Below are positions 7,440-55,928 of a stretch of DNA of 64,000 nt, in pieces. This stretch comes from Callorhinchus milii. Taxonomy: Eukaryota. Position numbers and translations under genes: made by a program. How positions within the stretch are numbered: position 1 is the stretch's first letter; each line of letters opens with the position of its first letter. The stretch lies in the NCBI RefSeq assembly GCF_018977255.1, contig NW_024704742.1:5272001-5336000 (forward strand), read 5' to 3'. A model generated the notes under the pieces. That model was given only the letters and a program-made list of their open reading frames with translations, was not told the origin of the DNA and ran no database searches.

Positions 7440-7531
7440 GCACCAAACTCTGTACCCTCATCGCACCAAACTCTGTACCCCCATCGCACCAAACTCTGTA
7501 CCCCCATCACACCAAATTCTGTACCCCCATC
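7440..7531. repeat. 4 x 23-bp tandem repeat inside L2
   Basis: gcaccaaactctgtacccccatc repeated four times. Confidence 0.9.
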
Positions 7532-12992: not shown

Positions 12993-13369
12993 TGGAGTCC
13001 TGTAGCTCAGTGGTTAGAGCACTCATCTCTCAAGCGAGAAGACCTGGATTTGATTCCCGGGCGGAGTGAAACGTTGGGAAAGTTTCCTTACTCCACACGC
13101 TTCTGTTTACTTAGCAGTAAGTAGGAACCCAGTTGATTGGGGGATCGCTTTTCCCGGGGGTAATAACTCCTCCAAAAAAATAATAATAAATTGGTCACTC
13201 AATCCATGACTGTTTGTGGGGACGCTGCTGTGCGCAATTGGCCGCCGCGTTTCGCCCACAAAATATACAGTCAATTCACTTTACAGTATATTCTGTGAAG
13301 TGCTTTGAGACGTCTCAAAGACGTGATAAGGCGCTGTATCAAATGCAAGGATTATTATTATTATTATTA
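12993..13369 (+). mobile_element. Full-length tRNA-headed SINE (long subfamily)
   Basis: Head tggagtcctgtagctcagtggttagagc, central segment, gctgtgcgcaattggc module, tail hairpin and (ATT)n. Confidence 0.92.
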
Positions 13370-14239
13370 GTGACTGTAGGCGAATCTGTGATGATAGGTC
13401 ACATTTTTAATCCCATTATTTTTAAATATACAGACGTGAAAACAGCAGAACTACCATATTTAAGCTGCTGGCAAGTCCCTGTACATAATTAACTGGACAG
13501 TTTATATTGGAGCTTTAAGATTTGCAGCTGATGCACACTGTAATAAAACAAATTAATATTAGAGCGATAATGTTACCCAACTGGCACAAACACTTTATTT
13601 CTGCTTGTCCTGTCTTTTCCTTATTCTCTCTCTCGCTCTCTCTCCCACTTTATTTGACTACTTTCATTTGAGTCTAGATCAGAAACAAGAAATCAGTTTT
13701 TTTCTAACTCTTTTTACGGTTTTCAAAAAAAATAAAAGTTCTCCTTCCTATTGGCTCAACTTGAACTTCCCTGAGGTAAAGATGCACAGTTGTTCCATAC
13801 CCAAGATAATGCGTAAACATTTGAAAACTAAACACAGGTTAAGTCAAGTGGTCATGAAAGAGACCTACTCCCAACTCTATTTCTCCCAACTCTGTGCACG
13901 CACCTCATCTACCAGCAATGCCATTTTCATTTATTAATAGGCTGTACCTTTTGTTAATACTTTTGGTGAATAAGGCATTGGCGTTCTTGAAGGAGAGATG
14001 CCAATACTGGGGAATGGGACATCATCCCATCAATTTTGCTCTGGGTTAGTATCAAGCAAGCTGGAGTTAGATATAGCACAAAACTCACTGTATTCTGCAC
14101 CAGCAACATGTCTTCACCGCAGTCTCAGAAGCACATTCCTCGCTGCAACATTGTGAATAGAGTACTGTATTTCCATTTCTCACACCAGCCATACACATTC
14201 TCAGCAAACTGTAGGCAAGCTTGATCTGTGGAGCTGAGC

Positions 14240-22158: not shown

Positions 22159-22325
22159 TTACAACTGTGTCGCAAAATAAGGACGGCCATCATCCTCCAG
22201 GCGTCGCGTCAAGATTTCACAGCCAGTCTCTGTGACCAGCAGGGTGTGCTCAAATTGTGCGGAACGCTTGCCATCTTTAGTTACAGCAGTCCAACCATCT
22301 GGCCAGGTCTCATCGTGCCACGCTC
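22159..22325 (-). CDS. METAP1: Methionine aminopeptidase 1, last coding exon (exon 11)
   Basis: Translates (G)[54 protein letters not shown]; acceptor actacag; contains the metal-ligand motif QFEHT. Confidence 0.97.
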
Positions 22326-22766
22326 CTGTAGTTAAAATAAACACTCAAGTCACTTCCTCATAGCCGTTCAACCCACTACCTACTTGGATCATTTCTGTAC
22401 TATTTCACAAGGACCATTTGATTCTCCTGTCTTTTCGCCCATAAAATACACAGTCAGTTCACTTTAGAGTGTTTTGCTGTGAAGCGTTTTGAGACGTCTC
22501 GAAGACGTGATAAGGCGCTACATCAAATGATTATTGCTATTATTTCACCTCCTGATGCTGCCACGAGTTAGTGAGTGTGTTCTCACTTAGTGAGAACATT
22601 CAGGCTAATCGGGTTAATATTTCATTGTACAAAGTGAAACTGTGTTGGCTTTACATGTTTCATTTAACCTGACAAACATTCAAAAGCAGACCTCTCTAGA
22701 TTTCCACTGGCCTTCCTGACTGTACACGTTAACTGAATTCTGTAAAACATGCAATTTGTATCTTAC

Positions 22767-22832
22767 CTTCACAAATCATAGGTTCAATTGTAAAGATGTG
22801 ACCTGCCTTCATCACTCCAACAGCTTTATTTT
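22767..22832 (-). CDS. METAP1: METAP1 exon 10 (66 nt)
   Basis: (K)[21 protein letters not shown]; acceptor tttatag, donor gtaaga; phases fit neighbouring exons. Confidence 0.97.
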
Positions 22833-23915
22833 CTATAAAGAAAGAAATGTGGCAGGAAGAGTACACCCTATTAGGCGCAAATCACTGAATTTTTCATTAC
22901 ATCGTCAAACCGCCCAAAGAAGTAGAACGCCAAACAGAAACGTCCAAGACCAAAATATACCACAGAGGAAGACAACATTGTGAGCTCCTGATCTGTGTTG
23001 GTTTGTATCCAGTCAGACAGAAATCCACATACGTGGGCTCCCATTACATGCAAATTTCCCATTTCTGGAATGGAATGCGCACTCCATCACTGGAGAAACA
23101 CAGCAAATTATGGACAGGATTAGGCTTAGGAAATGGACTACCAAAACCGCCAAAGAGGGTTGCCTTGATTCTGGCATTCCGTTGTCAAGCATATGAACTA
23201 CGACAGTCTCAAAAAGGGAAGTTAAAAAAAAAAACAGGCTATCAAACTCCCTGCAAACTTCCTGAAATGTGTGACAGCATTGCTGCTATTCTCCTGCCCA
23301 CAGCTCAGGCACACATCCTTGAACATCAGACGATGATTTGACTAGTTGGAATTGCGGAGTTTTGAGCAGCAGCTGCTGTTTCCACATTCCAAGGGGACAC
23401 CTGGATATGAGTGAGTGTTCACAAACACAGACTCCAGGTGAATCCTTCCTGCAGTCGTCTCAACTCTCAAGATTTGCTCAGCACCTACTGAACAAACACT
23501 GCCTTGCTGTATGGTGGTGGACCTATAGTGGACACCAGGTGACATGTCAGCCACCTAGTCCAATGCTCAGAGGGGAGCTGGTGCACTGAGATTAGGCACC
23601 ATATGGAGAAAAATGGAGCGACAACAGATCATACTCAGACCATACATTCAGAAGCATTAAAGCTCTAAGCCTGGGAATGGCTTCTAAAGAAGGAAAAAAA
23701 ACAAAGCTGAGCTAACGGCTGTTATAGTTGATAGGTGACATGGAATTATTGATAATGAGACATGATCAAGACTAATACACAAAAAATGCTGTTTGCGGAC
23801 ATACAATCACTGAATGTAACACTTATTTTTAGATTGAGACGAAAAAAACATTGGAGGGTGCTATAAATCATTAAACTTCATTTCATCTGTATAGGTTTTG
23901 AAACGGGTTGCTTAC

Positions 23916-24059
23916 TTGCGTAATGTGGCACATTAGGTGCAGTGTGGAAAAGTCGGTGGATCCCATGGCCACAATAACTTCGGACAACTGAAAATCCATT
24001 TGCGTGTGCGTGCTTCTGAATGATATTCCCCAACTCCCTGTACCGAATACCTGGCTTTA
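23916..24059 (-). CDS. METAP1: METAP1 exon 9 (144 nt)
   Basis: (V)[47 protein letters not shown]; acceptor tttgcag, donor gtaagc. Confidence 0.97.
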
Positions 24060-24716
24060 CTGCAAAGAGTAATATTTAACCCAACAAGTTATTCCAATTG
24101 TTTCACTTTAACAAGATTACCAAAAAGTGAACTAAAGCTAGTTCACTTTAATACATCAATACCCAGGCCCAATATATGTATATAATATAATATAATATAT
24201 AATATGCATTGCCACTCAGGATGCAGTGACAAATAGAAGCAGCAGGATAATGGGACTTTGTTATGTGGGCGCATTGTTGTAGTGGGGTAAAGTCTGCAGC
24301 ACTTCCCAACTATCTTTGGAATTATGTCAATATCTTTCATAAAAGTAGAGTGAATAATAACAGCACTCCACTTATTAAGTCTGTAATAAAGCACAATTTA
24401 CTGATCTTTTACACTGATAAGATTTTTGTACAACAATAATAATAATTCTGTTCAGTTTTGAGTTAACTGAATTGTCAGGGCAAAAGAACACAATTTGCAA
24501 TTTACTAACTGATCCCAGAACAGTCTGGATGAACAATTTATCTCATTCCGCAGGTGTAAGAACATATGAAATGGAGCATTGTTTCAATGATATCACAATC
24601 TTTCTCTTTCATATCAGTGGCAAATCAAACACGGGGGGAGAAACAGTATAATTTTTTTAAAAATAGTCAAGCTAACTGCATTCTAGTTATGTACTTGGCA
24701 CTCAAGGCCCACTCAC

Positions 24717-24848
24717 CTGAATCAATAGCATGCATAAGGCATTCAAATGTTGTCTGAACCAGTTTCTTTGCTCCTTCATCGATTTCTCCGACAAAAAAGG
24801 TCTCATTTAAATCACCATGAAAACCATTTCGGTAAACTGTAATATCCA
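24717..24848 (-). CDS. METAP1: METAP1 exon 8 (132 nt)
   Basis: (V)[43 protein letters not shown]; acceptor ttacag, donor gtgagt. Confidence 0.97.
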
Positions 24849-25194
24849 CTGTAATCAAAGAAAGCAGAGTTTCAGACATAATGTTTTATCGTTTGAAAAA
24901 GTAATGCTCTGGTTGTGGTAAGTTTAGGGCACTTAAGAGAGAGACTGCAAGAGTAAGAGCTCCTGTTAGTGTACAAGGGTTGTACGAACTGTACGAACCT
25001 TGTTAGGTAGAAAGATAAGGCTTCAGTCAGAACATACAGCGATGATTTAAAATTCTGCAACAATGTATTTGCCACTTCTGTCAAACTACGTAATAATGCC
25101 ATTTGAGAAATGAGTTAATCTGAATAAAAGGTGATTTGTAGTATAATTCAGAGACATTTAATATCGGATTCATTTATACATTTAGTATAATACC

Positions 25195-25557
25195 TTGTAG
25201 GTCAAGAGGACATCCCAAAGCGCTTCACAAGATATACGGTAAAGTGCAGCGACTCTGTATTTTGTAGGTGAAATACGGCAGCTAATTACACAGAGCAATG
25301 TCCCACAGTCATGGCGCGAATGTTCAATTTTATTTGGCCGATTGTTGGCCAGGACACTGGGAGAAAATCCCTTCTCTCTTCAAATAGTCCCAAGGAGATC
25401 TTCAACATCAAACCCAAACAGGCAGACGGGATCTCGGATTAACATCTCATCCGAAGGATAGTATCTCCGACAATGCAGCACAGCCCCAGCATTGCATTTC
25501 AGTGCCATTTTAAACTAGCCCCAAAACAGAGCTCGACGCCACCATCTTCTGACTCAG
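25195..25557 (-). mobile_element. Deu-domain SINE (SacSINE1/AmnSINE1-like), degenerate
   Basis: Reverse complement contains tgcattgtcggaga...ttcggatgagatgttaatccgag...gtgtcctggccaa. Confidence 0.7.
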
Positions 25558-25994
25558 ACATGACATACTTAAATACTTCAATAATGATTTAACTATCTTA
25601 CAATATTCTTCCAGAACAATTGCTTCAAATATACACAATTATGACTTGCCTGGGTTTATATTAAATCACCACTAGATTTTTAGCATGATGGCTTTATAGA
25701 TTGCTTGGTCTTTGCTGCCATGGTTGATAAAGCCACATCAACCGTACAATTCAAAAGAAAATGAAACGAACAGCCCCCAGTAAATGGAACAAAATCATGC
25801 TGTCTGTTTAGTGTTTAGCGAGTCAAGTTGCAGTAATTTGGCAAAGCAATCCATGCCAAACAGCAGAGAGGATTTTTTTTAATAGAAAACTCTGTTCTCT
25901 GGTGAACTCTTCACCCAATCAAAACCAGATTATTTTGGTCTTAATTGGGAATAATAATCTGCAATCGTGTTGCAATATATTAAATTGCCGAATT

Positions 25995-26335
25995 CCACCT
26001 TTCTCTCAAGCCCCACATCAGGCTTTCAGCCTATAGTCTCGGCTGATACTCCAATGATGTGCTGCATCGTTGGAAGTGCTGACCTTCGGATGAGATGATA
26101 GACTGGGGTGCTGTCTGGATGTTCAGATGGACAACAAAAATTCCATGGCACTATGTGAAAAGAGAAGGGAGTTCTGCTGGTGTTCTAGCAATAATTCCCC
26201 AGAAACAAATGGGTCTTTTATTCATGGCTGTTTGTGGGAAATAGCCGTGCGCAGATTGGTTGCTTCACTGCCTATAAACAAGTCATTAAACTTTACACTA
26301 AACGCTGTGAAGCTTTGTGATATTTTGATGTGATA
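25995..26335 (+). mobile_element. Deu-domain SINE, degenerate
   Basis: gtgctgcatcgttggaagtgctgaccttcggatgagatg...catggcactatgtgaa...ctgtttgtggga. Confidence 0.65.
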
Positions 26336-26485
26336 AATCAATAGTAGTAGTTTTTTTCACTACTTTACAATACTGTTCATGGTCACGACCCGTACTTTCT
26401 GGTTGACAGGACAAATACTTTGCTAGTAGTCTTTTAACATCTAACATACTCAGAGCAAACCGGAAAGACCGTTTTTCTTCATTTA

Positions 26486-26665
<180 letters not shown>

Positions 26666-27197
26666 TTAACTGCACAGCCATTTAAAAAATATATAAATTA
26701 CCGTTTCCGATATGTAATTACAGATTACAAAACCTATTGCCCCAGTCGCAAGTCTTACTTCAACCTTCGTGGATGCACATCTCTAACTTGCGGAGCCCGT
26801 TCTGACTCCTTGATGTACTGTTACAACCCCACAAGCATACTCGCTTTCACTCAGTTTCCCCTCACCTCTGCAATATTGCACCCCTCCACCACTACTTGAT
26901 CTCTACCCCTAAGCCGCCAAGATGTCTGCGCGTGCCAACGGCTCTGGGTCTGCTTGAGGGATTCTCTAGGTCTTTCTTCCCTGCATAGACTGCAGACTAC
27001 AACAACTTCGAAAACAACAAGTTGCATTTATACAGCGTCCTCCATGCAGTGCAGTGTTCCAGCGCAGCAACTATCCTGAACTTGTAAATTACTAAGCCGA
27101 GGCTAACAACATGCTCATCCCAAATTACTTCCTCCACAGATGTACTTGTGTTTCAGATTTTTTTTAAGAAAGCAAAAAAAAAAGGAACAGTTCTTAC

Positions 27198-27281
27198 CAG
27201 ATGAACGGCATGATCAATCTCTTCTGTTGTGACCCCTGGCCTCACCATCATTGAAGCCACATCTAATACTTCCCTGGCAAG
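27198..27281 (-). CDS. METAP1: METAP1 exon 6 (84 nt)
   Basis: [28 protein letters not shown]; acceptor tttccag, donor gtaaga. Confidence 0.97.
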
Positions 27282-27829
27282 CTGGAAAAGAAATAAGTTA
27301 AGTTTAAAAAAAACACACATTGTAAATTTAAACAACATGAACCACAGCAAAGGTAGAAAAATGGTGCTTCAATCGTCATAGAATGCAGCAGTTTCAATGT
27401 TCTCTTTACTAAAATATAGATGGGTTTTCTCAAGTTTTATTTCGATTTAATATTTATGAATAGCTATATATGACCAATAAAACAGAATTGAGAAAGAGTC
27501 GGGGGGCAAAATGGACAGGATAGTTCCTACATCATGTCCCTACAGAATGCTTGCTTTTAAATAAGAAGGTGAATTACCACAGGCTATACTCTCACACACC
27601 ACACAGCACCCAACTCAGGAAAAACAGCTGTCCACTTGGCTAGTGAATGTTGTGAAATATAGGCGTCCAAAAGAGCTGCTAAATGACATACTCCCTCTAA
27701 AAACATCCCTGAACTGACATATTTCAGCCACTTTATAAGCCATATTGTTTTATCAGAGGAACGGTAACTCTTTGCACGGTTCAAACATTAGTTATAATTA
27801 TATATAATATTCCTTGCATTGGATATATA

Positions 27830-28190
27830 ATGAAATATAATAATAATCCTTGCATTTGATATTGTGCCTTATCACGTCTTCAGGACGCCTCAAAATGCTT
27901 CACAGAATATACTGTAAAGTAAATTCACTGTATATTTTGTGGGCGAAACACAGCAGCCAATGGCACACAGCAGTGTCTCACAAACAGTTGTGGATTGAAG
28001 TGACAATTTTTTTTAAAAAGGAATTATTACCCCCCGCAAAAGCGATCTGCCAATTGACTAACAACCGGATTCCTACTTAGCGCTAAGTAAACAGAGGCTT
28101 GTGGGGTAAGGAAACTTGCCCAACATTTCGCCTTGGCAGGAATCAAACCCAGGTCTCTCGCTTGCAAAGGCGAGTGCTCTAACGACAGGA
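27830..28190 (-). mobile_element. tRNA-headed SINE (long subfamily) in METAP1 intron 5
   Basis: Similar to the 12993 copy. Confidence 0.85.
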
Positions 28191-28651
28191 TGTTATCACA
28201 TTGTGGCGAAGTCTCAAAAGCGCTTCACAGGACATACTGTAAAGTGGATTGACAGTGTATAATGTGTGCAATTTGCCAATTTGTGCTCAGCAATGCTTAC
28301 CAACAGCCTTGAAGCGAACGAACCATCTTATTTGGGAGATGGTTGGCCAGCACACTGGGAGAAACTCAGCAACCTGTTCATGGCCCCCATCCACCCCACT
28401 CCACCATCCCCAGTCTATTATGAATTCCAAGTCCCGACTTGGGGTTTGAACCCCCACAATCTTGAATCAAGAGTGCTATCAAGTGAGCACGGCTGACACA
28501 CACATTTAATTAATGTACACTGGTCTGTAGAGGATTAGTGACTCGTTACAGATTCCAGCAGTCACAGTGGGATGTAAATCCGGTTTTCTTCCAAGACAAA
28601 CACAGTGATAGACGGCAGAAACAATAAAAATGAACCAAACTTGAATCTCAC

Positions 28652-28743
28652 TCTGCATACTAGCCGCATTGCGTCTATGTCTTCCGCTGGCAGAACTTTG
28701 ATCTGCGACGTCCCCTTTAAGGACTGCTCGGATTCAGACACAC
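28652..28743 (-). CDS. METAP1: METAP1 exon 5 (92 nt)
   Basis: (G)[30 protein letters not shown]; acceptor ctttaag, donor gtgaga. Confidence 0.95.
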
Positions 28744-29204
28744 CTTAAAGGATCAAAGAATAATATGAATACACTTTTAAAAAGTTTCAATATTTTTAAA
28801 ATTCCTTTTTTTCCATGTCACATGCAACTTAGCACTAGTTGAAAAAAAGCGGAGCCGGGGGTGGGGGGAGAGGCTGTCGAGGCTGCTGACAGTGTTATAC
28901 CTGACAAAGAAGATACACAAGGTGGCTTGGGTAGACATGACATTCAAAAGCCAGTGGGAAATCATCTGTGACATAGTGTGCAATGCTCTGACAGAGAGAT
29001 AGGGAACTCACCACTTAACCCGTTTCCCACAGCGCATGAAACGTGCATTAGTACTCACTGACACAGAAATGAATGATAAAATCAATCCTGTGAATTATCA
29101 GCAGCCACATTTCTAATTTTAGCGCCTCATGCATATATAATATTTTGTTCAACACAAGTGATTGTCTGTGAAAATGTATCATGTGATGGCAAATGGTAGG
29201 TTAC

Positions 29205-29265
29205 CTAATGGATGATCTGCATAATCAGGCCACTGGACATAACTTGGCACAAGCCTCATGGGACT
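29205..29265 (-). CDS. METAP1: METAP1 exon 4 (61 nt)
   Basis: SPMRLVPSYVQWPDYADHPL; acceptor cctttag, donor gtaacc. Confidence 0.95.
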
Positions 29266-30231
29266 CTAAAGGAAAAAAAATAAGGTCTGTTATAATTTCC
29301 TACAAGCAGACAGTTACGTTTAAATTCTAAGCTAAAAATCCACTTCTCCTGTCAAGAATAATCTGATTCACCTTTTATACTCAGCTATTCAACAGTTTAT
29401 TACTGAAAATACAGTGAAATTCAGTTAACGGAATATCGGATAATTGAACAGTTCGGTTTGTTCAATAGAATTTAGAGCTCCAGGAGATAAGTCGCCTGCT
29501 ATGTTTAGTCGGGTTATATTGAATAATTTCTGCTGTCAAAATGAGAATTCAATTAACAGAATTTCACTGTACATGAAATCATGACAGATAGTAAAACCAG
29601 CCGTGACCAGAATGAAATAAACAGCATATCGCTCAAATCTTCCTGCTGAGCAATATTCAAGATCCTTCCATGGCCTCACCCCACACTCTCTCTGTGACGT
29701 CCCACAGCCCTACTGCCCTGACCGCTCCCTCCGCTCAGCAGCAGCCCGCTTCACGTCCTCTGCCCAATCTGCCTCATCGATCAAGCATTCCCCATTCTGC
29801 CCGCTACCTCTGCAACACTATCTCAGAGCCACTCTGCCTCCACTTCTCTCTCTCTCTCTCTCCACTCTTAATGCCTGCCTTAAGGCTCACCTTTACAACC
29901 ATTCTTTCAGTCACCTTCTATCTCCCCCCCCCCACCCCCTCAGTTTCAGCTCCCAGTTAGTTGTGTGAAGCACTTTTAGATGACATCCCAAAGTGAAAAG
30001 CACTACATTGAAGGTGAATTGTTGTTGACGTTGCTCAAGGTGATACCAACAGAATGATAACAACAGAAAGCCCTGTTCTATAGGTGCAACCACCACCTAA
30101 CAGGCAGGTTCAGAACTGATGGAATAAGGTCATCAAACAGACCATCAGCCACCCCCAACTCCACTGATAACAATAAAATGCTGAGATACGTTTTCTGGTA
30201 CAATGGTCATCTCCACTCCCTCAAATCCCAA

Positions 30232-31490
30232 ACCTGACTGCTCGAGTGCAGATGGTACAAACCCAGCCTCACGGTTCACCGCCAGCTACCACTGCTCCCT
30301 CTCGCAAACCAAAACTGCATTCTTTTCGCAGGTCATTCCGGAGGCCAAAAACACCAACGACATCCTGTTCTCCACCGCCCACAATCTCCTCTGCGTGCCC
30401 CATCGAGTACCCGCAATCCTAACATCAAATGCCAAGTGCAAAGAGGACTTGGGATTTATTTATCTCCAAGCTAGATAAAATCAGCCTGGCCACCTCCTCC
30501 TCCTGCCCCATGTACCCCAACACCACCCCCATTCCTTATCCGTTACCCAATCCTCCTCCCACGGCTCCTCCTATCACGGGCCCCAACCTACACTCCTTTG
30601 ACCCCATCTCTCCTTCCTCCCTCTCATCTTCCATCACCCAGATGAAACCCACCACCTGCTGCCTCGACCTTTCTCCCCAGCCAGCTGCTGGTCGCTCAAC
30701 TCCACCTCCTCTTCCCACTGCTGGCAGACATGATAGAATTAGTCCCTCTCCTCAGGCTCCATCCCACACCCATTCAAAACAGCTGACATCAAGCCCCCTC
30801 CTTAAAAAAAAACCACTCTCGATCCCTTCAACCTCACTGCTGTCCCATTTCAAACCTGACCCTCCTGGCCAAAGTCCTGAAACACATTGCTGCAAACCAA
30901 CTTTGTTCATACCTCGCCTACTCGAACCCCTCCAGGTCAGTTTATGCCCAGCCCACACCACAGAGACAGTCCTCGTCAAAAGTAACAAACGTCATCCTCT
31001 CTCTCTCCCTGACCAGGGCTCCCTCTGCCTCCTCGTCCTCCTGAACCTCTCCACTGCGTTCGACAGAGTCGATCATGTCATCCTCCTCCACCGCCTCTTC
31101 TACCTCACCCACATTACTGGGACTACATTCCCTTGCACCTCCTTACCTTTCTCACCTACTTATCCCCCAATCCACCACCCAATTCCTCCGCTCGACTGGC
31201 TCTGGCCTCCTATTTGTCCCTTGTGACCTCCATTCCACCATCTGTGGCCATGCCTTCAACCATTATGCCCCGAAACTCTAGAACTCTCTTCTCAATCCCT
31301 CCGCTTTGCGCCTCACTCCCCACCTTCAAATCCCGCTTAAAGACCTTCCTTTTTGATTGTGCTTACGGACACCTACTCCTCCCTCTGGCTCGTTGTCAGA
31401 CTCCGCCACAGTAAAGCTCTCCGGGACACTACATTGCGAATAAGGTATTCGCGTGAAGGGCGCTATATAAATGTAAGTTGCTGTTGTTTC
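30232..31490 (+). mobile_element. Internally deleted L2 in METAP1 intron 3
   Basis: LLNLSTAFDRVDHVILLHRL, FKSRLKTFLFD and an L2-type tail. Confidence 0.88.
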
Positions 31491-31665
31491 TGTACCATCA
31501 TCAGTTATTCGTTTCAAAAAATAAATGTTTATTTTTGTTAACCATAAAATTTTAACATATAACAAGCTCCAAGTATCCAAAGCCTTATGTATTATTTCAA
31601 AATAGGTGATGATGTTATGCATTTGCTTGCTTTGTCAGAGTATATGCAGACAGTACTTCACTTAC

Positions 31666-31775
31666 CAATGGGTAATATGGCCTAAGTTTGCCTGTGTATC
31701 GATAGCCAGGCCAAGGATCCATATTAATTTCATCCTTAATAGACTTAGAATTTTCTTCTTTAGGTTTTTCATTTT
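31666..31775 (-). CDS. METAP1: METAP1 exon 3 (110 nt)
   Basis: (K)[36 protein letters not shown]; acceptor attgcag, donor gtaagt. Confidence 0.95.
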
Positions 31776-31819: not shown

Positions 31820-32225
31820 TGATAATAATAATACTGTATATTTGGTATAGCACCTTTCACGTCAGGACAATGTCCCAAAGTGCTTCGCATAATATACTCT
31901 AAAGTGCAATGACTGTATGTTCTGTGGGCGAATGTGGCAGCCAACTTGCACACAGCAATGTCCCCAAAACAGCCATGAATTGAATGACCAATTTTATTTG
32001 GGGGGATTGTCGGCCAGAACACCAGAAGAAACCCCTTCTCTTTTCAAATAGTGCCATGATATCTTGAACACCCAGCTGAACAGGCAGAGGAGGTCTCGGT
32101 TTAACATTTCATCTGAAGGGAGGCATATCCAATGATGCAGCGCTCTTCCAGCACTGCACTGGAGCCTCAGCCTTGACTAGACTATATGGGTTTCAAGTCC
32201 CCGATGTGGGGCTTGAACACACAAC
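31820..32225 (-). mobile_element. Deu-domain SINE in METAP1 intron 2
   Basis: Deu core and 3' module on the minus strand. Confidence 0.7.
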
Positions 32226-33062
32226 TTGGGTACTTCTGATTCACTTACTCTTCATTGTACTGTTTTACTGTCCGAAATTCATTGGTTGAACAAATCTAAT
32301 ACAACCTATTTAATTTGGACTATTGTTCTTAGACAATCAAATTCCAATGCTAAAAGCTCACATTTTGCTCTGGCGTTTTGAACACTGAAGTCATCCTACA
32401 TTAAGAAGACAAATCTTCTGAGCTTTTTTCTGCAACTCTCTAGACAGGCAACTGTGAATCGTTAGCAACCCGAGACTTGGCAAATGATCTCACTGCTGTG
32501 TATGTAGAGTATAAGATAACAAGCGCCATCTCCTGCACTCTCCTCAGACAATTTTTTTTTTACTGATCGACTCCCGAGGCCTTAGTTGCCCAATCTGTGA
32601 AGTTTTGGGTTTTCTTGGCACTGGTCTTGGTGTGTTGTTTACACATTACTAAAATAGGGTTACTCCTTTATCAGAGTTCATTTAACAGCTCAGTTGGTAA
32701 AGTCCCATCTACAGTGAAACTGCTATTTAAACCATACTGATAGGTCGTAGGCTCAATTTCCAGCTTGGGCTGAATTGAGTGATCTATGCTGGGCTAGCTT
32801 TTCATCTCTGAATGCGATTACCAATCTGTATAGATCAAGATCCATCATTTTGGATGAGACTGAATAAACCAATTTCAAATGGGAGCTTTCTTGTAAGGAG
32901 AGTTCGTACACAATTTAAATGCACATCCCTGAGACAAAAATCACTGTGTACCACCACCTAATTGCCTAATTTCCCAGGCTGTGCAATCTGAAGATCAGCT
33001 TGGTACAAGCTCATCGTTTAAAAGAAACAATTAAATGTTTTGGTTTTAAAAATAATACTTAC

Positions 33063-33114
33063 TAGCGTTTTTATGAAGAAGCTTGTGAGTTGACCAGCTC
33101 CCTTTGAAGCATTC
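33063..33114 (-). CDS. METAP1: METAP1 exon 2 (52 nt), second half of the N-terminal zinc finger; exon 1 not found
   Basis: ECFKGSWSTHKLLHKNA; acceptor ctgcag, donor gtaagt. Confidence 0.95.
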
Positions 33115-33521
33115 CTGCAGATGCAAATTTGAGAAAAAGTACAATTAGTACACCTGAATATATGAGGTACACAAAATAACAGGACAGATAGCTCTGTACT
33201 AAATTTGATTCAAAGTATAAACTCACTGGTTGTTCAGCTTTAATTATATTTGACAAGATAACCAGCCAGCCCTTATGTTTGGAAAACATAAATGTATATC
33301 ACTTTAGGTTGAGGTTCAAAAAAATTATACCCATCTAAGCTTCAGTTTAGGAGAATACAAAACAGAATCCAAATCCCAACAATGCTAAACCTCACACGAG
33401 TCTTGAAAAACTTTTAATGCAACTTCCCCGACTAGTGATGGCGCCTGGCAATTAAGCACACAAGCCAGATTGCTACCTAAAGTTTACATTTTAGACTACT
33501 TTAAAGCCAATACTGAATTAT

Positions 33522-33836
33522 TGGAGTCCTGTAGCTCAGTGGTTAGAGCGTTCGCTTTGCAAGCGAGAGACCTGAGTTCAATTCCAGGCAGAGGGCCAAA
33601 CCTTGGGCAAGTTTCCTTACTCCACACAGAGCCTAATAATAATCCCTTCAAAAAAAAATAATAATAGTAATCCTATCATTCAATCTACGACTGTTTGTGG
33701 GGCACTGTGCGCAATTGGCTGCTGAGTTTTGCCCACAAAAATACAGTCAATTTACTTTACATTACACTCTGTGAAGTGCTGTTAGACGTGTGGAAGATGT
33801 GATAAGGCACTATATCAAATACAAGGAATATTATTA
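33522..33836 (+). mobile_element. Chimeric tRNA-headed SINE (short-subfamily 5' half, long-subfamily 3' half)
   Basis: 5' half matches the 47012 copy; 3' half has the agacgt...gtgataagg tail of the 12993 type. Confidence 0.8.
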
Positions 33837-33972
33837 CAATTTTTAAAAACGTGTTATAGATTTCGAAAGTTTTTCTGATGTATTTGTTTCTCGAGAAATA
33901 TCATTCTTTATTGTACTGAAATGATGGAACTGTGTTTAATTGGTTACTAATACTGTGCAATTCTGGTTACAG

Positions 33973-34068
33973 ATGGGCACTTTGGTTCTTCAAAAATGAC
34001 AAAAACAAAACTTGGCAAGCTAATCTGCGTCTGATATCCAAATTTGATACAGTGGAAGACTTTTGGGC
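33973..34068 (+). CDS. EIF4E: Eukaryotic translation initiation factor 4E (class I), exon 3 (96 nt); exons 1-2 not found
   Basis: (R)WALWFFKNDKNKTWQANLRLISKFDTVEDFW(A); acceptor gttacag, donor gtaagt; synteny with METAP1 and TSPAN5 points to the EIF4E1A orthologue. Confidence 0.96.
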
Positions 34069-35091
34069 GTAAGTAGAAACACAAAATAAGTGAGAAGAGT
34101 ATTTGTTTAAAAATATATATTTTCTGATTTGGTTTCTCTTATGCAAGCGCGCAACATTCTGGAATCGAGAAGGCACTTTCCTGTTGACGGTGCATAACAG
34201 GAATACAGAATGAATGACCCTTTGCCTATCATTGCCCATGTTCTTTTGCTGTTCTTCTCTTTACTCCCCCCCCCCCCCCCCCCCTCTAACCTTCTGTAGC
34301 TCAATTTACTAAATTGAGTTATTATTCTTTATAACCAATTTTATGGATGTGAAGAATGCTTTGGCATTCAGAATTGGTTTTCCAATGTTGGTTAGAATTG
34401 TAATTTTGGTTGAACTTGTTTTCTGCTGTTGTATCTTTATCAGTTTGATTTTGACACGATTGGCACGATTGACACGATTCTCATTTCGCTTTCTTAAGCT
34501 AAATTGCATTGCCTGGAGGGCAAATACAATGAAGGACATATCACATCTTCAGATAGCACACTTTCTAAAATTATCCTTATTCTTTTTGACAAAATTGACC
34601 ATTCAACTTCCATGCTGACTTTGGAAAAACATTTGTATTGTAATAAAGGTTTTTCCATGACAAAATAGCAATAATATCATCATTACCCCCATGCAATTAG
34701 AATACCTGAAACAAATTAAAATATACCTTCAACACTTTTGTTTCAACTGTTGTCCGGCTACCTACTTTGCATTAAGAGTTCGTTATTTTGAATGTTTCTT
34801 TTTGTTCCTCATTTCTATTTTCTATTTTGTATTCCTGAGCTTGACTTTAAAGCTTTTAAACAGTTGAACTGTAACCAGGTTGCATTGAGATCATGGCACA
34901 CAATCCTGAAACTTTCTGAGTTCTTCTATCACTACAAAACTGGAACTGCTTTATTGCGTCAAATGTTCAGTATAAATCTCATAATAGAGGTGTAAAGAAA
35001 TGTTGAAATAATTTTAAATAGACATGGATTTTTTAATGTGCAATGGTTACCCCCATGTATTCTGACTACTCATGTTTTCTTCACCTCACAG

Positions 35092-35155
35092 ACTTTACAA
35101 TCATATACAACTCTGCAGTAATTTAATATCGGGCTGCGATTACTCTCTCTTTAAG
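35092..35155 (+). CDS. EIF4E: EIF4E exon 4 (64 nt)
   Basis: LYNHIQLCSNLISGCDYSLFK; acceptor tcacag, donor gtaagt. Confidence 0.97.
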
Positions 35156-36227
35156 GTAAGTAAGATAAATGCTTCAGTGTTTTTTTTTTAAATTACGCTG
35201 TTTATTTAAAAATGGAAAAATTTGGCCTGAGAAAAGCTCATTTGAGGAGGGAAAGTTTATTGAATTCCTAGTTCCATAAAAAATGAAGTGTGAATTTCAA
35301 CTACACCAGAGATTGACCTTGTGTCCCATTGTCTGTGAGATAGTGTTGAAGCCATTGCACCAAAAACTCCCATTTAAAACAAATATTTTAGGCTTCTTTA
35401 ATAAGTAGTGATTTTGAAGGAGGTAAACTTCATGAAGTGCAAATCAGAACATTTTGATCTTTACTGTGAGGACCTGGGATTATAAAACCAGTTTTGCAAG
35501 ACAATTGTATTTTTGATTGTTTCTTAATTCCCCTCGGAGTTCCGATTTGGTGTCAACTGTATTGGCGATATATCCATTTCTGACACAGAACCAGTATTTT
35601 TCAATTCACAAAGATGCTTCTGTTCTGTTAGATTCAAAAATAAATTCTAACAAATGACTGTTTAAAGAGAATACTTAATCAATTACTTTAAGATCTCCTG
35701 TTTTTCAAATTCTGCACTGAGCATCAAAAAGCCATTTTAGGACCTTTACAAACAAAGGTGACAAAGCCACTTTGTACACATAGAACTGAATAAGGCTTAC
35801 ATAAGAACATAAGATACGAAAGACGAAAAAATACCAAAGTCCCATCTAGTTATCCTTCCACCTTCCTGGCAGTCGCACGCACACATGTCCCAAACTACCC
35901 AGCTTACATTTCCACTCTGATTTTGTTTGAACTTGGATCAATTTAATTTGCACTGGTACATCACCCAAACAAATATAATTAGACTTGTCCATTTTCCCTG
36001 CTAAAATAAATATCGATACATGGATTATATTTTAAAAATATAATTAATTTTTAAACTCTCAATGTAAAATACATTTCCCAAGGGTCCTGCAATACAATCA
36101 GCCCGTGATTATAAATGCATAATATCCTAAGCTTTTATTCACCGAGCGTTAACTTAGACATAATTGCAGTATTCTTCAAATCTTGTTGTAAATAGGTTGA
36201 ATGTGCTTAAATGTCTACTTTGTGTAG

Positions 36228-36341
36228 GACGGTATTGAACCTATGTGGGAGGATGAGAAAAATAAACGTGGTGGGAGATGGCTGCTCACCCTTTCTAAGC
36301 AACAAAGAAAAACTGATCTGGATCGTATTTGGTTAGAAACT
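36228..36341 (+). CDS. EIF4E: EIF4E exon 5 (114 nt)
   Basis: DGIEPMWEDEKNKRGGRWLLTLSKQQRKTDLDRIWLET with the cap-binding WE pair; acceptor gtgtag, donor gtaagt. Confidence 0.97.
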
Positions 36342-37312
36342 GTAAGTATTTTTCCTCCTTTTCAGAAAATGAACGACATTCGGATGTTGCTTTGAGCTCA
36401 TGTTCTAGGCTTGACCATCCTCCAGTACAGTGCTGCACTGTCGGAGGTGCTGTGCTTCGGATGAAACGCACGTTCAACCGAGCAACAGTTCTCCAGGGAA
36501 AAAAAGAGTAGTATTGCTGTAGTTAACCACTAGAAGGCGCATTGAAACCTTTCAGAGTTAACTTGGCAAATTGTCGTTTTTTTCTCCCGACTGGGCCAGC
36601 CAGAGACCAGAGACTGCACAAACACAATGCTACCCGGACACTCTGGGACTCTTTTATTAGCGAGGAGGATCAACCTTTCACACCAAACGAATGATTAGAG
36701 GATAGAACTGTGATGATGAATCTGAAGAAGCGATAGAATCCATTTTGGATCTAAGTCAGGCTTCAGTGCAAACTTGTGCATTTTCTATCATATATGTTTT
36801 TCTTTATTGTTTAACTGTAGTTTGCTTGTAATTAGACGCTGGGATCTATTTCTTCATCCTTCCAGCCCCCTCATTCCTTCTCTCTTCTCTTCCCCCCCCC
36901 ACCCCCCGCCCGCCCGCCCGCCCGATGCAGATCGAGATCCAGAACTAGGTCTTTTCTGCAATTGGAAACCAAAGCGTTACAGTGGCCATTTGACAGTGGG
37001 GGTTGGGGGAAGAGAAGAACATTTTTTAAAATCAATAATAGTGGCAAAACATTTGTTTAAAAAAACACAGCTGCAGCTTCCCAAGGGCTCAGTATCAGTT
37101 TATTTATTAATTTATTTAGTTGAACTTGGCCTGGAATAGTGGCAGTGCAACAAGTGGCATTTACACCCAGAGCTTGGAAGGGGAAAATCAGTCACAGTTA
37201 CTACTCCCAATCATTAATCAATGGCCCCCTGTTTTCCATTCCCTCGGCACTCAGTTTTAAAGTTGTAAAATGTGACCTACACTTAAGTTTTTATCCTTTC
37301 ACTCCCCTGCAG

Positions 37313-37452
37313 CTACTGTGCCTTATAGGAGAAGCATTTGACGAGCACAGTGATGACGCATGTGGTGCAGTAGTTAATGTTAGAAACAAAGGTGACAAAA
37401 TAGCTATATGGACTACTGATTGTGAAAATAGAGAATCTATCACATATATAGG
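37313..37452 (+). CDS. EIF4E: EIF4E exon 6 (140 nt)
   Basis: LLCLIGEAFDEHSDDACGAVVNVRNKGDKIAIWTTDCENRESITYI(G); acceptor cctgcag, donor gtaagt. Confidence 0.97.
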
Positions 37453-37811
37453 GTAAGTGAATCACTTGATACCCCTTAGACTTTATATAGTTGTCAAAGC
37501 AGAACTTTCGAGTGCAGTGAATAACAGCTTGCATAAAACATTCCCAACCCGTGATCCTCATCACACTGCTGGTTTGCAAAGTCTTCCCCGTGAATGGAAT
37601 TTTGTGCTTTTTTTTCCCCCGCCCTCTTTGCAGATGCAAGTTTAGCATTTTGATTAGATGTTTTCACATAATAATAATATAATAATCCTTGCATTTGATA
37701 TAGAGCTTTTCGTGTCTTCTAGATGTCTCAAAGCGCTTCACAGAATATAGTGTAAGGTGAATTGACTGGATATTTGTGGGCGAAACTTGGCAGCCAATTA
37801 CGCACAGCAGT

Positions 37812-38284
37812 CTGTCTTCCCAACTCTTACCTCCACAAGATGCAGATTATCGAGAACTCTGCAACTCTTATCCTCTCCTGCACTGAACTCTGTGAACCTA
37901 TCAGCCTCATCCTCGCCCGGCTCCCCATTCTCTCTGAGGATCGAGTTCAGAATCCTCGTCTTCGCTTTCAAAACCCTCCACGGCCTTGCTTCTCCCCATA
38001 TCTCCCTCCGCTCAGCAGACGTCCCCCGCCTTGCTTGCCCCATCTTCAGCCTTACTGCCCTCATTCTTTGGAACTCCATTCCATAGTCCCTTTGCCTCAG
38101 CCCCCTCCTTTCATAGCCCTCATCAAGATCTTCCTCTTTGACCGTGCCTTCGGTCACCCTCCTGCCCCCACCCTCCACCCCTCCTGATCCCAACCCCCAG
38201 CTTGGGTGCAAATCCTTGAATGTCCAGCGCCTTGGGACCTCCTCCGGACGTGAAATGCACTGTACAAATGTAATTTGTTGTTGT
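37812..38284 (+). mobile_element. L2 3' fragment in the last EIF4E intron
   Basis: LHKMQIIENSA...IKIFLFDRAFGHP and tail with (TTG)n. Confidence 0.85.
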
Positions 38285-38603
38285 ATTTGACCACTGAGCA
38301 AACAAGTGCTTCAAGTTAGGCTCAAAATCCAGTCATAAAATTGCCCCCGTTTCTGTACAATTGGCAAAATTCATCACATTTAGAGGTTGAGAGTAAATTA
38401 AATGCTTAGGTATCCATCTTTCTTGTTCTTTGAACGTACTGTCATTCAACCCAACATTGTAATTTGTTTTTAACTTAATCAGCTCTGTCACTGCTGAAAG
38501 TAATTGATTTCCTGTTATCTGGAAACTTGTGGTAATTAAGGAAAGACTGAGTATTGAATTTGTTGAACTAACCTTTTCTTTGTCCTTTTCCTCTTGTCAA
38601 CAG

Positions 38604-38718
38604 GAGAATTTATAAGGAAAGATTAGGTCTCCCTCCTAAGGTAGTGATTGGCTACCAGTCGCATACAGACACTGCCACAAAAAGTGGATCAACGACCAAG
38701 AATAAGTATGTTGTTTGA
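38604..38718 (+). CDS. EIF4E: EIF4E last coding exon (exon 7, 115 nt)
   Basis: RIYKERLGLPPKVVIGYQSHTDTATKSGSTTKNKYVV*; acceptor caacag; retains the KSGS phosphorylation motif. Confidence 0.97.
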
Positions 38719-41017: not shown

Positions 41018-41946
41018 ATCCTTGCATTTGATATAGCCCCGATCATGTCTTTGAAACGTCTCAAAGCGCTTCACAGGATACACCCGTAAAGTGAATTGAC
41101 TGTATTTTGTGGGCGAAACGCGGCAGCCAATTGCGCACAGCAGTGTCCCACAAACACTCGTGGATTGAGTGACCAAATTCTTATTTTTTTATTTATTTTA
41201 TTTGAAGGGATTATTAACCCCAGGAAAGCGATTCGCCAGTCAACTAACAACTGGGTTCCTACTAGGTAAACAACAACAACAATAAAATTACACTTGTATA
41301 GCGCCTTTCAAGTCAGGAGGACGTCCCAAAGTGCTGGATAATCAGTGTTTGGGCCCGAGCTGGGGGTTGGTATCAGGGAGGGTGAAGGGCAGGGGGTGGG
41401 AAGGAGGTTGGCCAAAGGCACGGTCGAAGAGGAGGGTCTTGAGATGGGTCTTGAAGCTGGCAAAGGAGGTGGTGAGGTGGAGGGACTGGGGGATGGAGTT
41501 CCAGAGGGTGGGGCAGAGTGGCTGAAGGCCCGCCTGCCAAAGGTGGGGCGGGCGAGGCGGGGTACATGAAGCAGCCCCGAACCTGTTGAGTAGAGGGAGC
41601 GGGCAGGTTGGTAGGGGGTTAGTAGGTGGCAGAGGAATTGGGGAGCAAGTCATGGAGGGCTTTGAAAGTGAGGACCAGGATCTTGAACTGTATCCTCCGT
41701 GTGATGGGAAGCCAGTGGAGTCGGGTGAGGATGGGGGTGATGGGTCGTGGAGCCTGGTGCGGGAGAGGACACGACGGGCTGCAGAGTTCTGGATGATCTG
41801 CAGCCTACGGAGAGAGAGTTGGGGTGGTCGACAAGCAGGCGTGTGGAGTAAGGAAACTTGCCCAAGGTTTCGCCCTGCCCGGGAATTGAACCCAGGTCCT
41901 CTCGCGTGCGAGGCGAATGCTCTAACCACTGAGCTACAGGACTTCA
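41018..41946 (-). mobile_element. Long-subfamily SINE split by an L2 insertion (L2 about 41271-41831)
   Basis: SINE tail and middle at 41018-41270, head at 41832-41946, L2 C-terminal coding sequence and tail in between. Confidence 0.85.
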
Positions 41947-42883
41947 TCAATTGGGGAAAGTGACTAAAAGAAAGATTCACAGACAGTTGACTAATTCAAA
42001 TATCTTATGACTCATTTACTAGTCCAGACATGCAAGTATTACAGAGAAACATGACAAACACTTTGTCTCAGGCGGCCCCTGTGTCAGCAAAGGGGATTCT
42101 GATGGGGAAAAAGAAAAGACACTAACAACGCAGTGGGCCCTTTGCCAAACAATAGCCAGTTTGATTGATGAAGATAGTACCTTTGGACCCTATTATGCAT
42201 TCGAATGACAGGATGTTAAAGGAGAATTGTTGGTGAATTAGTTACCATAGTCAAATGGATCAACATAAGCTTTATTGCCACTTCATTGCTTCTAGCCGAC
42301 ATTCTGACCGAACCGAAACAAATTGCAAAGTCCCAGCACCTATCCAGAGTAGATTATGCCTTTGCCTCACTATTCCCCCCTATATGTTAACAGACTGCTT
42401 TAATCACATCCGAACCCTATTGAATCCTGCAAATTTCTAAACAATTAAACAGCAATACCCAATCCCCAGCCTGCTGATAAAATGTATATGGATCAGACTG
42501 ATGGGTTATCCATTTGATTGAAGGGACAAGTTAGCAGAAACACTGCAAGGTACATTGCTTTAAATAAACTTTGCCTTGGAGGCAACAATACCATTTTAAT
42601 ATCGGTAATTGTCCATGTCTCGTTGACCTGAGAAGGTGGGAGTATATCTTCTCTTTGCAATGAGTGTCTTCATTGGGCCAATTTCAAGAGTCAACCACAA
42701 AATGTGGGTCTGGAATCACATGTAAACCAGACCAGGTAAGGATGGGAGATTTCCTTTGATTCGTGGAAGGGTTCTGTCAGAGAGCACTGGATGGTTGCGT
42801 GTATCATTCTTCGGATGAGACAATAAACCAAGGTCTCATCTTCCTGTGCGAGTGGATGTTAAAGATTCAAAAAGAGAAGGGAA

Positions 42884-43058: not shown

Positions 43059-43794
43059 GTTGGTTCAGTTAACAGTGGCACTACACTAGATCTTCACCCT
43101 AGCATTTGTCCATTCCTGGTTGAGTAATAATAATAATAATCCTTGCACTTGATATAGCGCCTTACCACGTCTTCGAGACGTCTCAAAGTGCTTCACAGAA
43201 TATTCTGGAAAGTGAATTGACTGTATATTTTGTGGGCGAAATGCAGCAGCCAATTGTGCACAGTGTGAGTGTTTCTGGTTATGGAAATTCCATGGGCTTG
43301 ACTCTCGAGACGCTGACAAACACGCAGAGTTCTGTCAGTTGCTTCAATACACAAATTGCTTCAATTAAATGACCAAAACCAGCCAGACAGGACTGCAATG
43401 TTGCAATCTTAGGGTGTGATTTTGAATCTCTTGCTTGAAAGTCAGTGCAAAGAATAATAGCAATTTGCCACCAATAGTTGAACTGGAAGCTGACTAACAA
43501 GTTATGTGCCGCACTCGTAATAATAAATAACAATCCTTGCATTTGATACAGCGCCTTATCACGTCCTCGAGACGTCTCAAAGCGCTTCACAGAACATACT
43601 GTAAAGTGAATTGACTGTACATTTTACGGGCGAAAAGCGGCAACCAATTGCGCACAGCAGCGTCCCACAAACAGTTGTGGGTTAAAGGGACCGATTATTT
43701 TTAAGGAATTATTACCCCTGGAAAAGCAATCCGCCGATCGACTAACAACCGGATTCCAATTACTGCTTTGTAAACAGTTTGTTGCATTGTTTAA

Positions 43795-52399: not shown

Positions 52400-53355
52400 A
52401 GTTGTTGTTGGAGATTACGATGAAGGGTGGTCGCGATGAGAATGCCGGACTCAATTAAAAAAACACAGCTTGTGGCTGTGATAGGACGATGGTAGGGCGT
52501 GTATTTGGGGGAAAGATCGATGACCTGAAGGGTATACTTCATCTGAACCTCTCTTGGCATCTGGTGACTGGATAGCTTCGGGTCGATATCGCAGCTGAGT
52601 CGGAATCTACCTGCGCTCATACGTTTTACGGAAGAGTTCACTGGATAGCGATCAGGAGCAGGAGTGACGTCTGTTTATTTGCAGCTCAGGGCATTAAACG
52701 CAGAGTTCCTTCCCGCGGCTTCAACCCACCCCCGCCTCACCCCTTACTGTGTTTGGCGTGCGAGTCCCCCTGGTTCCATTCCATTCACCCCCCCCACACG
52801 AGGGGCCTTCACATCTGCCTCTAGTGGATCCTGGAGCGATGTGCGAAATGCAGCGATTTAAGGCTACGAGCCATTTTTTTTTCTCTTTCGGGGTGGGTTT
52901 CTACTATGCGGACGCAAATCAGGTCACCCCTGAAACCGACCGCAACCTCCAGCTGCTTTGAGAGGCGAGCTCCAGCGCAATCCTTAACGCTCGCTCACAT
53001 AACCCCCGTGTTTCCCAGATGCTAAATCCACGCTGATTCTTAGGCGAACGTCGCTGCGTTAATCCACCAACGACTTATATTTTTAACCCCCACCCGCCCC
53101 GCCCCGCCCCGGTTTTTTTTTTTCTGTTTGTCATCTGGACCCCTGAAGGGAATCTGGACCCCATTTGCGGATCGCAAATGACGTCTCTCCCTTTCGACTC
53201 GGGACTTTGCGAGGCCCCGTGCGTCCCCGTTTAGCAAATCGATCCTGGCCTTCGCTTTACGAGCGTAACGACACCTTGCGCCCCATTTTCTTTCGGATAC
53301 CTACACGCCCCGAAGCTACGCTGGTGTGAACACTGGGCGTTTGCACGCGAGCGCT
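52400..53355. promoter_or_regulatory. CpG-enriched segment with three tandem GC boxes upstream of TSPAN5
   Basis: Visibly more CpG than the flanks; cccgccccgccccgcccc at 53093-53110. Confidence 0.4.
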
Positions 53356-53370
53356 GTATCGACTGCAAGG

Positions 53371-53407
<37 letters not shown>

Positions 53408-53682
53408 AATTAAACCACAAAAAAACACAGCCACACGCACACACACTCACACACGTGTAATAATAATAATAATAATAATAATCTTTGCATTTGATCGAGC
53501 GCCTTATCACGTTGTCGCGATATCTCTTTTCGTGGCTTTGTTTCTCATTCTCTCGCTCTCTATCCTCCTGTACCCCCTTCGTTTCTCGTTCCCTCTCTCT
53601 CCCCTCTGATCCGCGCTCTCATACCCTCCCTCTTCTTCGCCTGTTTCTCAATCCCTCTCTCTATCCTCTTTTTCGCCTCTTT

Positions 53683-54436
53683 GTTTCCCATTCCCTCTCT
53701 CCCCCTTTTCCTTTCTCATTCCCTCTCTCCCACCTTTTTGTTTCTCATTCTCTCCCTCCGCCCTCTTTCTTTCTCATTCCCTCTTTCCCACCTCTTGTCC
53801 TTTCTCATTCCCTCTCTCCCTTTTCCTTTCTCATTCCCTCTCTCCCTTTTCCTTTCTCATTCCCTCTCTCCCTTTTCCTTTCTCATTCCCTCTCTCCCTC
53901 TTCCTTTCTCATTCCCTCTCTCCCTTTTCCTTTCTCATTCCCTCTCTCCCTTTTCCTTTCTCATTCCCTCTCTCCCCTTTTCCTTTCTCATTCCCTCTCT
54001 CCCTTTTCCTTTCTCATTCCCTCTCTCCCCTTTTCCTTTCTCATTCCCTCTCTCCCTTTTCCTTTCTCATTCCCTCTCTCCCCTTTTCCTTTCTCATTCC
54101 CTCTCTCCCTTTTCTTTCTCATTCCCTCTCTCCCCTTTTCCTTTCTCATTCCCTCTCTCCCTTTTCCTTTCTCATTCCCTCTCTCCCTTTTCTTTCTCAT
54201 TCCCTCTCTCCCCTTTTCTTTCTCATTCCCCCCTCTTGTCCTTTCTCATTCTTCCCCTCTTTTTCTTTCTCATTCCCTCTCCCTCTTCCTTTCTCATTCC
54301 CTCTCTCCCCCTTTTCCTTTCTCATTCCCTCTCCCTCTTCCTTTCTCATTCCCTCTCTCCCCCTTTTCCTTTCTCATTCTTCCCCTCTTTTTCTTTCTCA
54401 TTCCCTCTCTCCCTTTTCCTTTCTCATTCCCTCCCT
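53683..54436. repeat. Pyrimidine-rich tandem array, unit about 26-27 bp (ttttcctttctcattccctctctccc), roughly 28 copies
   Basis: Periodicity read directly from the sequence. Confidence 0.95.
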
Positions 54437-54480
54437 CTTTGTCACTGCCCTCTCTCTCTCTCTCTCTGTGTGTGTAAGTG

Positions 54481-54488
54481 CCGGAAGT
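54481..54488 (+). promoter_or_regulatory. ETS/GABP consensus CCGGAAGT between the two tandem arrays
   Basis: Exact consensus match in the short unique spacer, about 1.4 kb upstream of the TSPAN5 ATG. Confidence 0.45.
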
Positions 54489-54498
54489 CCTGCCCTGA

Positions 54499-55410: not shown

Positions 55411-55516
55411 GGATGAGAGCTGTGAGCCTGACTGGTGGCTGCAGTGCTGCTGAGCTGCTCTGCTCTCCTGTCTGTGTTGGGGCTGTGGAGCTGTGAGAGA
55501 GAGAGACACACAAACA

Positions 55517-55553
<37 letters not shown>

Positions 55554-55847
55554 TGAGAGGTGGAGTGGGGGTGTAGAGGAGAGACCAGACCAGTGGGAGT
55601 GGGAGTGGGGGTTACACTGAATCCACAGCGAGTAACATTGTAGCCAGAGCTGCAGAGCTACATTTGCTTCGGGAACTCCTCTCTACTCACAGCAGTTTCT
55701 TCCCTCCTCTCTCTCTCTCTCTCTCTTTCTCTCACTCTCACTCGCTCGCTCGCTCGCTCTCACTCTCTCGCTCACTCGCTCTCGCTCACTCTCAGCTCTG
55801 CCCATCTCCACCCGCCTCAATCGCTGCTTCTTCATGAGCTCCTCAGG

Positions 55848-55928
55848 ATGTCAGGGAAACATTACAAAGGGCCTGAAGTCAGCTGCTGCATCAAGTATTT
55901 CATATTCGGATTTAATATCATCTTCTGG
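55848..55928 (+). CDS. TSPAN5: Tetraspanin 5, coding exon 1 (81 nt); remaining exons not seen in the window
   Basis: MSGKHYKGPEVSCCIKYFIFGFNIIFW followed by donor gtgagt; matches the TSPAN5 N-terminus and its expected position next to EIF4E. Confidence 0.95.

Follow-up and report, generated by a model that had tools for sequence, protein, structure and literature searches.

Absence of the 5′ exons of METAP1 and EIF4E from a Callorhinchus milii genomic sequence: a probable assembly artefact at a SINE

Results

Gene content of the METAP1/EIF4E/TSPAN5 locus

The window, i.e. the whole 64-kb stretch of DNA that was analysed, is the METAP1(-)/EIF4E(+)/TSPAN5(+) locus of the elephant shark, Callorhinchus milii. 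It was identified as the METAP1/EIF4E locus of this species by the match of the exon translations, by the gene order and by the adjacency of the two genes in Capra ibex, where METAP1 and EIF4E lie on one sequence under the successive locus tags CapIbe_005513 and CapIbe_005514. The METAP1 and EIF4E genes of Mustelus asterias, like those of Cetorhinus maximus, were found on sequences of equal length. The CpG observed/expected ratio is 0.53 over the whole 64-kb window, which consists of vertebrate DNA. The following features of the two genes and of the DNA between them were determined:

22159..31775, minus strand: METAP1 exons 3-11 (31775-31666, 29265-29205, 28743-28652, 27281-27198, 26641-26503, 24848-24717, 24059-23916, 22832-22767 and 22325-22159, stop included), from spliced translation and RNA joints
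33114..33063, minus strand: METAP1 exon 2, encoding ECFKGSWSTHKLLHKNA, from tblastn and spliced translation
33115..33972, no strand: interval of 858 bp between METAP1 exon 2 and EIF4E exon 3, without exon, CpG island or promoter-like content
33115..33521, minus strand: unique sequence at the 3′ end of METAP1 intron 1, rich in A on the plus strand, joined to exon 2 in X1 and X3 DNA contigs
33522..33836, plus strand: full-length SINE of tRNA-Ala(TGC) origin, (ATT)n-like in its tail, highly repeated, from ARAGORN, Rfam and repeat matches
33837..33972, plus strand: T-rich 3′ end of the EIF4E intron upstream of the RWALWFF exon, joined to that exon in X1 and X3 DNA contigs
33973..34068, plus strand: EIF4E exon 3 (RWALWFF exon), containing RWALWFFKNDKNKTWQANLRLISKFDTVEDFW, from tblastn, an RNA joint and spliced translation
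35092..38718, plus strand: remaining EIF4E coding exons (35092-35155, 36228-36341, 37313-37452 and 38604-38718, stop included), from spliced translation

The frame 55644-55949 (+) translates to MSGKHYKGPEVSCCIKYFIFGFNIIFW and is presumably the N-terminus and first exon of TSPAN5; a Pfam scan of this short frame gave no match. Two CpG-rich windows (52501-53250 and 56001-56500) lie close to it. The order METAP1(-), EIF4E(+), TSPAN5-like first exon(+) agrees, as we take it, with that on human chromosome 4. Directly upstream of the TSPAN5-like exon there is a pyrimidine-rich tract of low complexity (53400-55700) with an AT skew of -0.42 to -0.74 and a GC skew as low as -0.53, in which all three plus-strand frames are open for 314-351 aa and give SLS/PLS-like repeats in translation.

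According to the original prediction, the splice acceptors of METAP1 exon 2 and EIF4E exon 3 point into the same 858-bp interval and the 15 remaining exons are intact. Both statements hold. The acceptor AGs are situated at 33116-33115 (minus strand) and 33971-33972, respectively; spliced METAP1 exons 2-11 are identical to residues 90-437 of the C. milii UniRef model P0242, and spliced EIF4E exons 3-7 to residues 44-219 of the C. milii model P0123, the stop codon being included in each case. The 3′ end of EIF4E exon 3 is set by the RNA joint 34068|35092, and the 3′ UTR of EIF4E extends to at least 39639 in a contig of X9 and to 39693 in a contig of X5.

At their 5′ ends, both genes are incomplete in the window. 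The METAP1 exon 2 frame covers only positions 31-46 of the 47-position Pfam profile zf-C6H2, and Peptidase_M24 together with a full zf-C6H2 finger was not found for METAP1 in the window; P0001, the representative of the cluster of P0242, has precomputed matches to both PF00557 and PF15801. METAP1 is 5′-truncated in the window and complete in the species. The EIF4E exon 3 frame matches positions 4-38 of 158 of the Pfam profile IF4E, and the N-terminal part ending in HPLQN, which a complete IF4E would include, is not found in the window. Two 5′ exons, EIF4E exons 1 and 2, are the mammalian structure; what was shown for C. milii is that the first 43 codons are absent from the window, the exon count being taken from mammals.

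Two further observations concern the body exons and the intron adjoining them. The UniRef models P0001 and P0244 of C. milii METAP1 omit the 28-residue exon 27198-27281 and run into the intron for 18 residues; in the window this exon is undamaged, and both P0242 and a further C. milii model, P0241, contain it. The omission is a fault of the two models and not biology. In the intron following EIF4E exon 3, several substitutions and deletions of 1-2 bases were observed at 34466-34476 in both DNA samples, X1 and X3. The site lies within a GATTTTGACACGATTGGCACGATTGACACGATT-like short repeat and the differences are either polymorphism or a local consensus error.

The interval between the two genes and the search for the missing exons

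The interval 33115-33972 has a GC content of 0.36 and contains 12 CpG (CpG observed/expected 0.43), and a CpG-island scan of the whole window listed none from 31501 to 52500, in agreement with the earlier description of an AT-rich interval without a CpG island. An A-rich left and a T-rich right side of the central SINE had also been described; AT skew is +0.15 in the left flank (33115-33521, 407 bases) and -0.196 in the right flank (33837-33972, 136 bases), which for such short stretches is weak evidence.

Six METAP1 and EIF4E proteins from C. milii, other cartilaginous fishes and other species were compared by tblastn with both strands of the entire window at E<=10. Every METAP1 and EIF4E body exon of the window was recovered. 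For METAP1 residues 1-41 (numbering of P0244) and EIF4E residues 1-43 (P0123), the same search of the window gave nothing credible, all matches being chance ones with E>=0.28, and the N-terminal parts of P0242 and P0123 had zero matches in the window at E<=1e-3. Nor were the missing 5′ exons of either gene found in a regular-expression scan of the 2164 stop-to-stop frames of the window, and nothing like them appeared in a Pfam scan of 51 frames, hand-picked from the 92 frames of at least 95 aa, together with the two exon frames. The tblastn comparison of the METAP1 and EIF4E N-termini that had been proposed with the original prediction yielded no credible placement in the window, where the exons had not been found by eye either. 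All points of the original observation that were put to the test held up.

The missing exons in gene models and transcripts of the species

The C. milii UniRef model P0244 begins with 41 N-terminal residues that are followed by the METAP1 exon 2 sequence of the window. The same 41-residue sequence is present in P0242, where it follows a read-through of the 5′ UTR and is again succeeded by exon 2; this read-through suggests that the promoter may be GC-rich. In the C. milii EIF4E model P0123, 43 residues ending in HPLQN precede RWALWFF. The N-termini are the same in sharks and rays (P0003-P0006 for METAP1, P0122 for EIF4E), and in the METAP1 proteins of these other cartilaginous fishes (P0003-P0006) the sequence is continuous across the same exon 1/exon 2 junction.

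Transcript contigs were also considered. The runs X5 and X9 had been labelled 'RNA?' by guess and were taken as spliced transcripts on account of their intron-skipping contigs. These contigs, unlike those of the DNA runs X1 and X3, skip the introns of the window at GT..AG or CT..AC; since the introns are omitted exactly at splice sites, X5 and X9 hold spliced transcripts. In the pieces listed, the X9 contigs differ from the window exons at 0 letters. X9 record 25 (METAP1, 2627 nt) carries exon 3 at record positions 159-268 and the joint 31775|33063 with 55 letters on the exon 2 side; in record coordinates, about 103 extra 5′ letters extend beyond the METAP1 exon 2 boundary. X9 record 28 (EIF4E, 1555 nt) carries the exon 33971-34068 at record positions 1355-1452 and has, likewise in record coordinates, 103 extra 5′ letters. 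Judged by these protein models and transcript overhangs, the missing 5′ exons of METAP1 and EIF4E exist and are used in C. milii.

These data bear directly on the possibility that the structure is fixed and functional, with first exons that lie elsewhere and are joined by trans-splicing, or with a programmed or somatic excision of DNA in the sequenced tissue. We consider this highly improbable. Its sole support is that the exons are missing from the 64-kb window. Against it, P0242, P0244 and P0123 unite the missing exons and the exons of the window in single gene models; UniRef gene models are built on one scaffold, here presumably of an older colinear assembly, and these models suggest that exon 1 already stands a few kb upstream of exon 2 on a single molecule there. 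Trans-splicing or relocation of the first exons would mean 5′ and body exons that are never colinear, and was rejected because single C. milii models join the two. The exon 1/exon 2 junction is, moreover, an ordinary one, as in P0003-P0006, and a tissue would presumably gain no plausible benefit from stripping two housekeeping genes of their promoters.

The same defect in public annotation

P0241 is the NCBI protein XP_042193677.1, 'methionine aminopeptidase 1, partial [Callorhinchus milii]', with a length of 358 aa, and belongs to the cluster of P0001. It is located on a sequence of 139,202,109 bp. Its start, LYFFSNLHLQECFKGSW, corresponds to the window frame 33144..33049 and is read through the acceptor into exon 2. 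To go by this model, METAP1 is headless in the same way in a chromosome-scale C. milii sequence, whose annotators labelled the model as incomplete. The label 'partial', with no alternative 5′ exon given, also argues against a fixed structure with first exons from elsewhere.

For EIF4E, the exon 3 frame (33920-34069) served as query in a protein search; apart from entries of other species, this brought up P0123, which covers 66% of the query and is 100% identical to it in the exon portion. No NCBI 'partial' C. milii EIF4E was found among the 15 of 39 members of the P0123 cluster that were listed; a partial C. milii model may be among its other members. Taken together, the gene models, the transcript overhangs and the 'partial' annotation indicate that the headless state is not the normal gene structure of the species and that no exotic mechanism is needed.

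Position of the break and the central SINE

In Logan contigs of short-read DNA runs from two other samples, the left flank is covered at 32254-33545 (X1) and 32036-33545 (X3), and the right flank at 33827-34258 (X1) and 33809-35882 (X3). Each flank is genuine DNA and continuous with its own exon, and any discontinuity is therefore confined to 33545-33809, within the SINE. None of the X1 and X3 contigs listed covers or bridges 33546-33808; short-read contigs stop in high-copy repeats either way. Twenty unmatched end letters of X1 record 3 and loose ends near 33552-33796 are most simply explained as other copies of the SINE.

The head of the SINE is tRNA-Ala(TGC)-like (ARAGORN 33526-33598; Rfam tRNA, 40.7 bits). 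The 315-bp element has 27 additional matches within the window, which are 75-89% alike save for three short ones (27-44 bp, 89-96%). At the junction stands one full-length SINE, clean and free of both N and scrambled sequence. Clear target-site duplications were observed neither at 33522-33836 nor at the 7 other window copies inspected. The family leaves no usable duplications and, as no inspected copy has clear ones, they are uninformative as to whether the element is a single insertion or a hybrid of two copies. Rfam searches of 32900-34200 yielded the tRNA-like SINE head and, besides it, a sub-threshold match to SNORD29 (21.5 bits, gathering score 48), which was taken as chance and rejected.

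Other repeats were noted in the window. A second high-copy family starts with AATAATAAT, translates as IIIILAFD... and occurs at 37679-38263 and in many other places; numerous DNA contigs from other parts of the genome are joined to position 37679. Other example sites of this family are:

8017-8256: second high-copy repeat family
10799-11089: second high-copy repeat family
13110-13406: second high-copy repeat family
43124-43369: second high-copy repeat family
60056-60163: second high-copy repeat family

The N-terminus of P0001 is odd (…TITTIIIILAAKRVCE) and suggests that a copy of this second repeat may lie just upstream of METAP1 exon 1, inside the missing segment. A recurrent GC-rich repeat with strongly negative GC skew, translating as …VEEDGVIDSVE.SGEVQEDEEAEGAL…, was observed at 30400-31500, 6400-7900 and 41300-42000. 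A reverse-transcriptase fragment at 6661-6996 (Pfam RVT_1, 28 bits, under the curated cut-off) suggests that LINE remnants may be present in the window. The sole ambiguous base of the 64 kb is a lone N at 20978 in a poly-T run (…CTTTCTTTTTTTNAAATAG…), which has the look of an ambiguity left by consensus building or polishing rather than of a gap marker.

Discussion

We interpret the headless METAP1 and EIF4E genes as an assembly artefact, a collapse or false join between two copies of the SINE, with a probability of roughly 0.6. The missing sequence is present in the species, and the breakpoint falls within a repeat with flanks that are otherwise correct. One copy of the tRNA-Ala SINE would lie in METAP1 intron 1 and another, in the same orientation, in the EIF4E intron that leads up to the RWALWFF exon; METAP1 exon 1, the EIF4E 5′ exons and the promoter region that the genes share would be enclosed by the two. 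While the sequence was being assembled, polished or gap-filled, these copies would have been fused into one and the intervening DNA dropped without leaving an N, and both genes would be complete and normally spliced in the animal. We infer both the pair of SINE copies flanking the lost segment and its loss in silico.

A published chromosome-scale C. milii assembly (PMC8302630) was produced from 68-fold PacBio reads with FALCON, a redundancy-removal step, Pilon and HiRise, and its gaps were filled with PBJelly. The assembly of the window is presumably a product of this pipeline. Polishing with local reassembly, or gap filling, can close a region via a shared repeat without an N, and the support from short-read polishing would be poorest at a GC-rich promoter. 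Against an artefact, long-read assemblers rarely collapse unique DNA of several kilobases on a 315-bp repeat whose copies are mostly 75-89% alike, and a heterozygous deletion bubble would give an identical sequence.

Such a deletion is the substance of a second explanation, in which one chromosome of the sequenced animal has lost the promoters and 5′ exons of the two genes through unequal recombination between two SINE copies of the same orientation. The assembler would have kept this haplotype, and the other one would supply both gene products. We regard it as possible but rather unlikely. A clean single full-length SINE without an N is the classic footprint of a repeat-mediated deletion, both flanks are genuine DNA, and a diploid-aware assembler followed by redundancy removal, as in the pipeline of PMC8302630, would be expected to keep one path of a bubble. 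On the other hand, the haplotype would be a double null of two housekeeping genes, presumably kept rare by selection; the joined form is absent from the X1 and X3 DNA contigs listed, which end in the repeat either way; and transcripts and other gene models show the intact form only. If true, this explanation would mean that elephant sharks carry a natural double-null allele of two essential housekeeping genes and that the reference animal was heterozygous for it.

In the original prediction, an assembly collapse was ranked above a deletion allele, and the latter above first exons from elsewhere. This order is retained in view of the gene models, the transcript overhangs and the 'partial' XP_042193677.1. 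The headless structure is most likely not a new kind of gene structure, and new biology would follow from it only if the deletion turned out to be a genuine allele. Under the preferred reading of an assembly artefact, its value is that of a quality flag: METAP1 is without exon 1, and with it the start codon and most of the zinc finger, EIF4E is without 43 codons, and the promoters are gone. Users of the assembly would be at risk in gene-loss calls, in orthology, in the analysis of 5′ UTRs and promoters, and in judging the conservation of the divergent METAP1-EIF4E pair.

Comparison with known systems

The locus resembles known cases of repeat-mediated assembly collapse in that sequence of the organism is absent, the junction lies in a dispersed repeat and carries no N, and a gene is flagged as partial. 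It differs from typical collapses, which occur at tandem or long segmental repeats, in that the shared sequence would here be a 315-bp SINE alone. For this reason an origin at the polishing or gap-filling step is favoured, and the error probably did not arise at read overlap. With deletions of the Alu-Alu type, the locus shares one full-length SINE at the junction and unique flanks that are intact on both sides, but the joined form was seen in no read or contig of an independent sample among the X1 and X3 contigs listed. Compared with the divergent METAP1-EIF4E pair of vertebrates, the elephant shark window lacks the 5′ exons and the intergenic region; the gene order is the one on human chromosome 4, and the tags of the two genes are successive in Capra ibex. 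Relative to other vertebrates, the elephant shark genes are very compact, with METAP1 exons 2-11 occupying about 11 kb and EIF4E exons 3-7 less than 5 kb.
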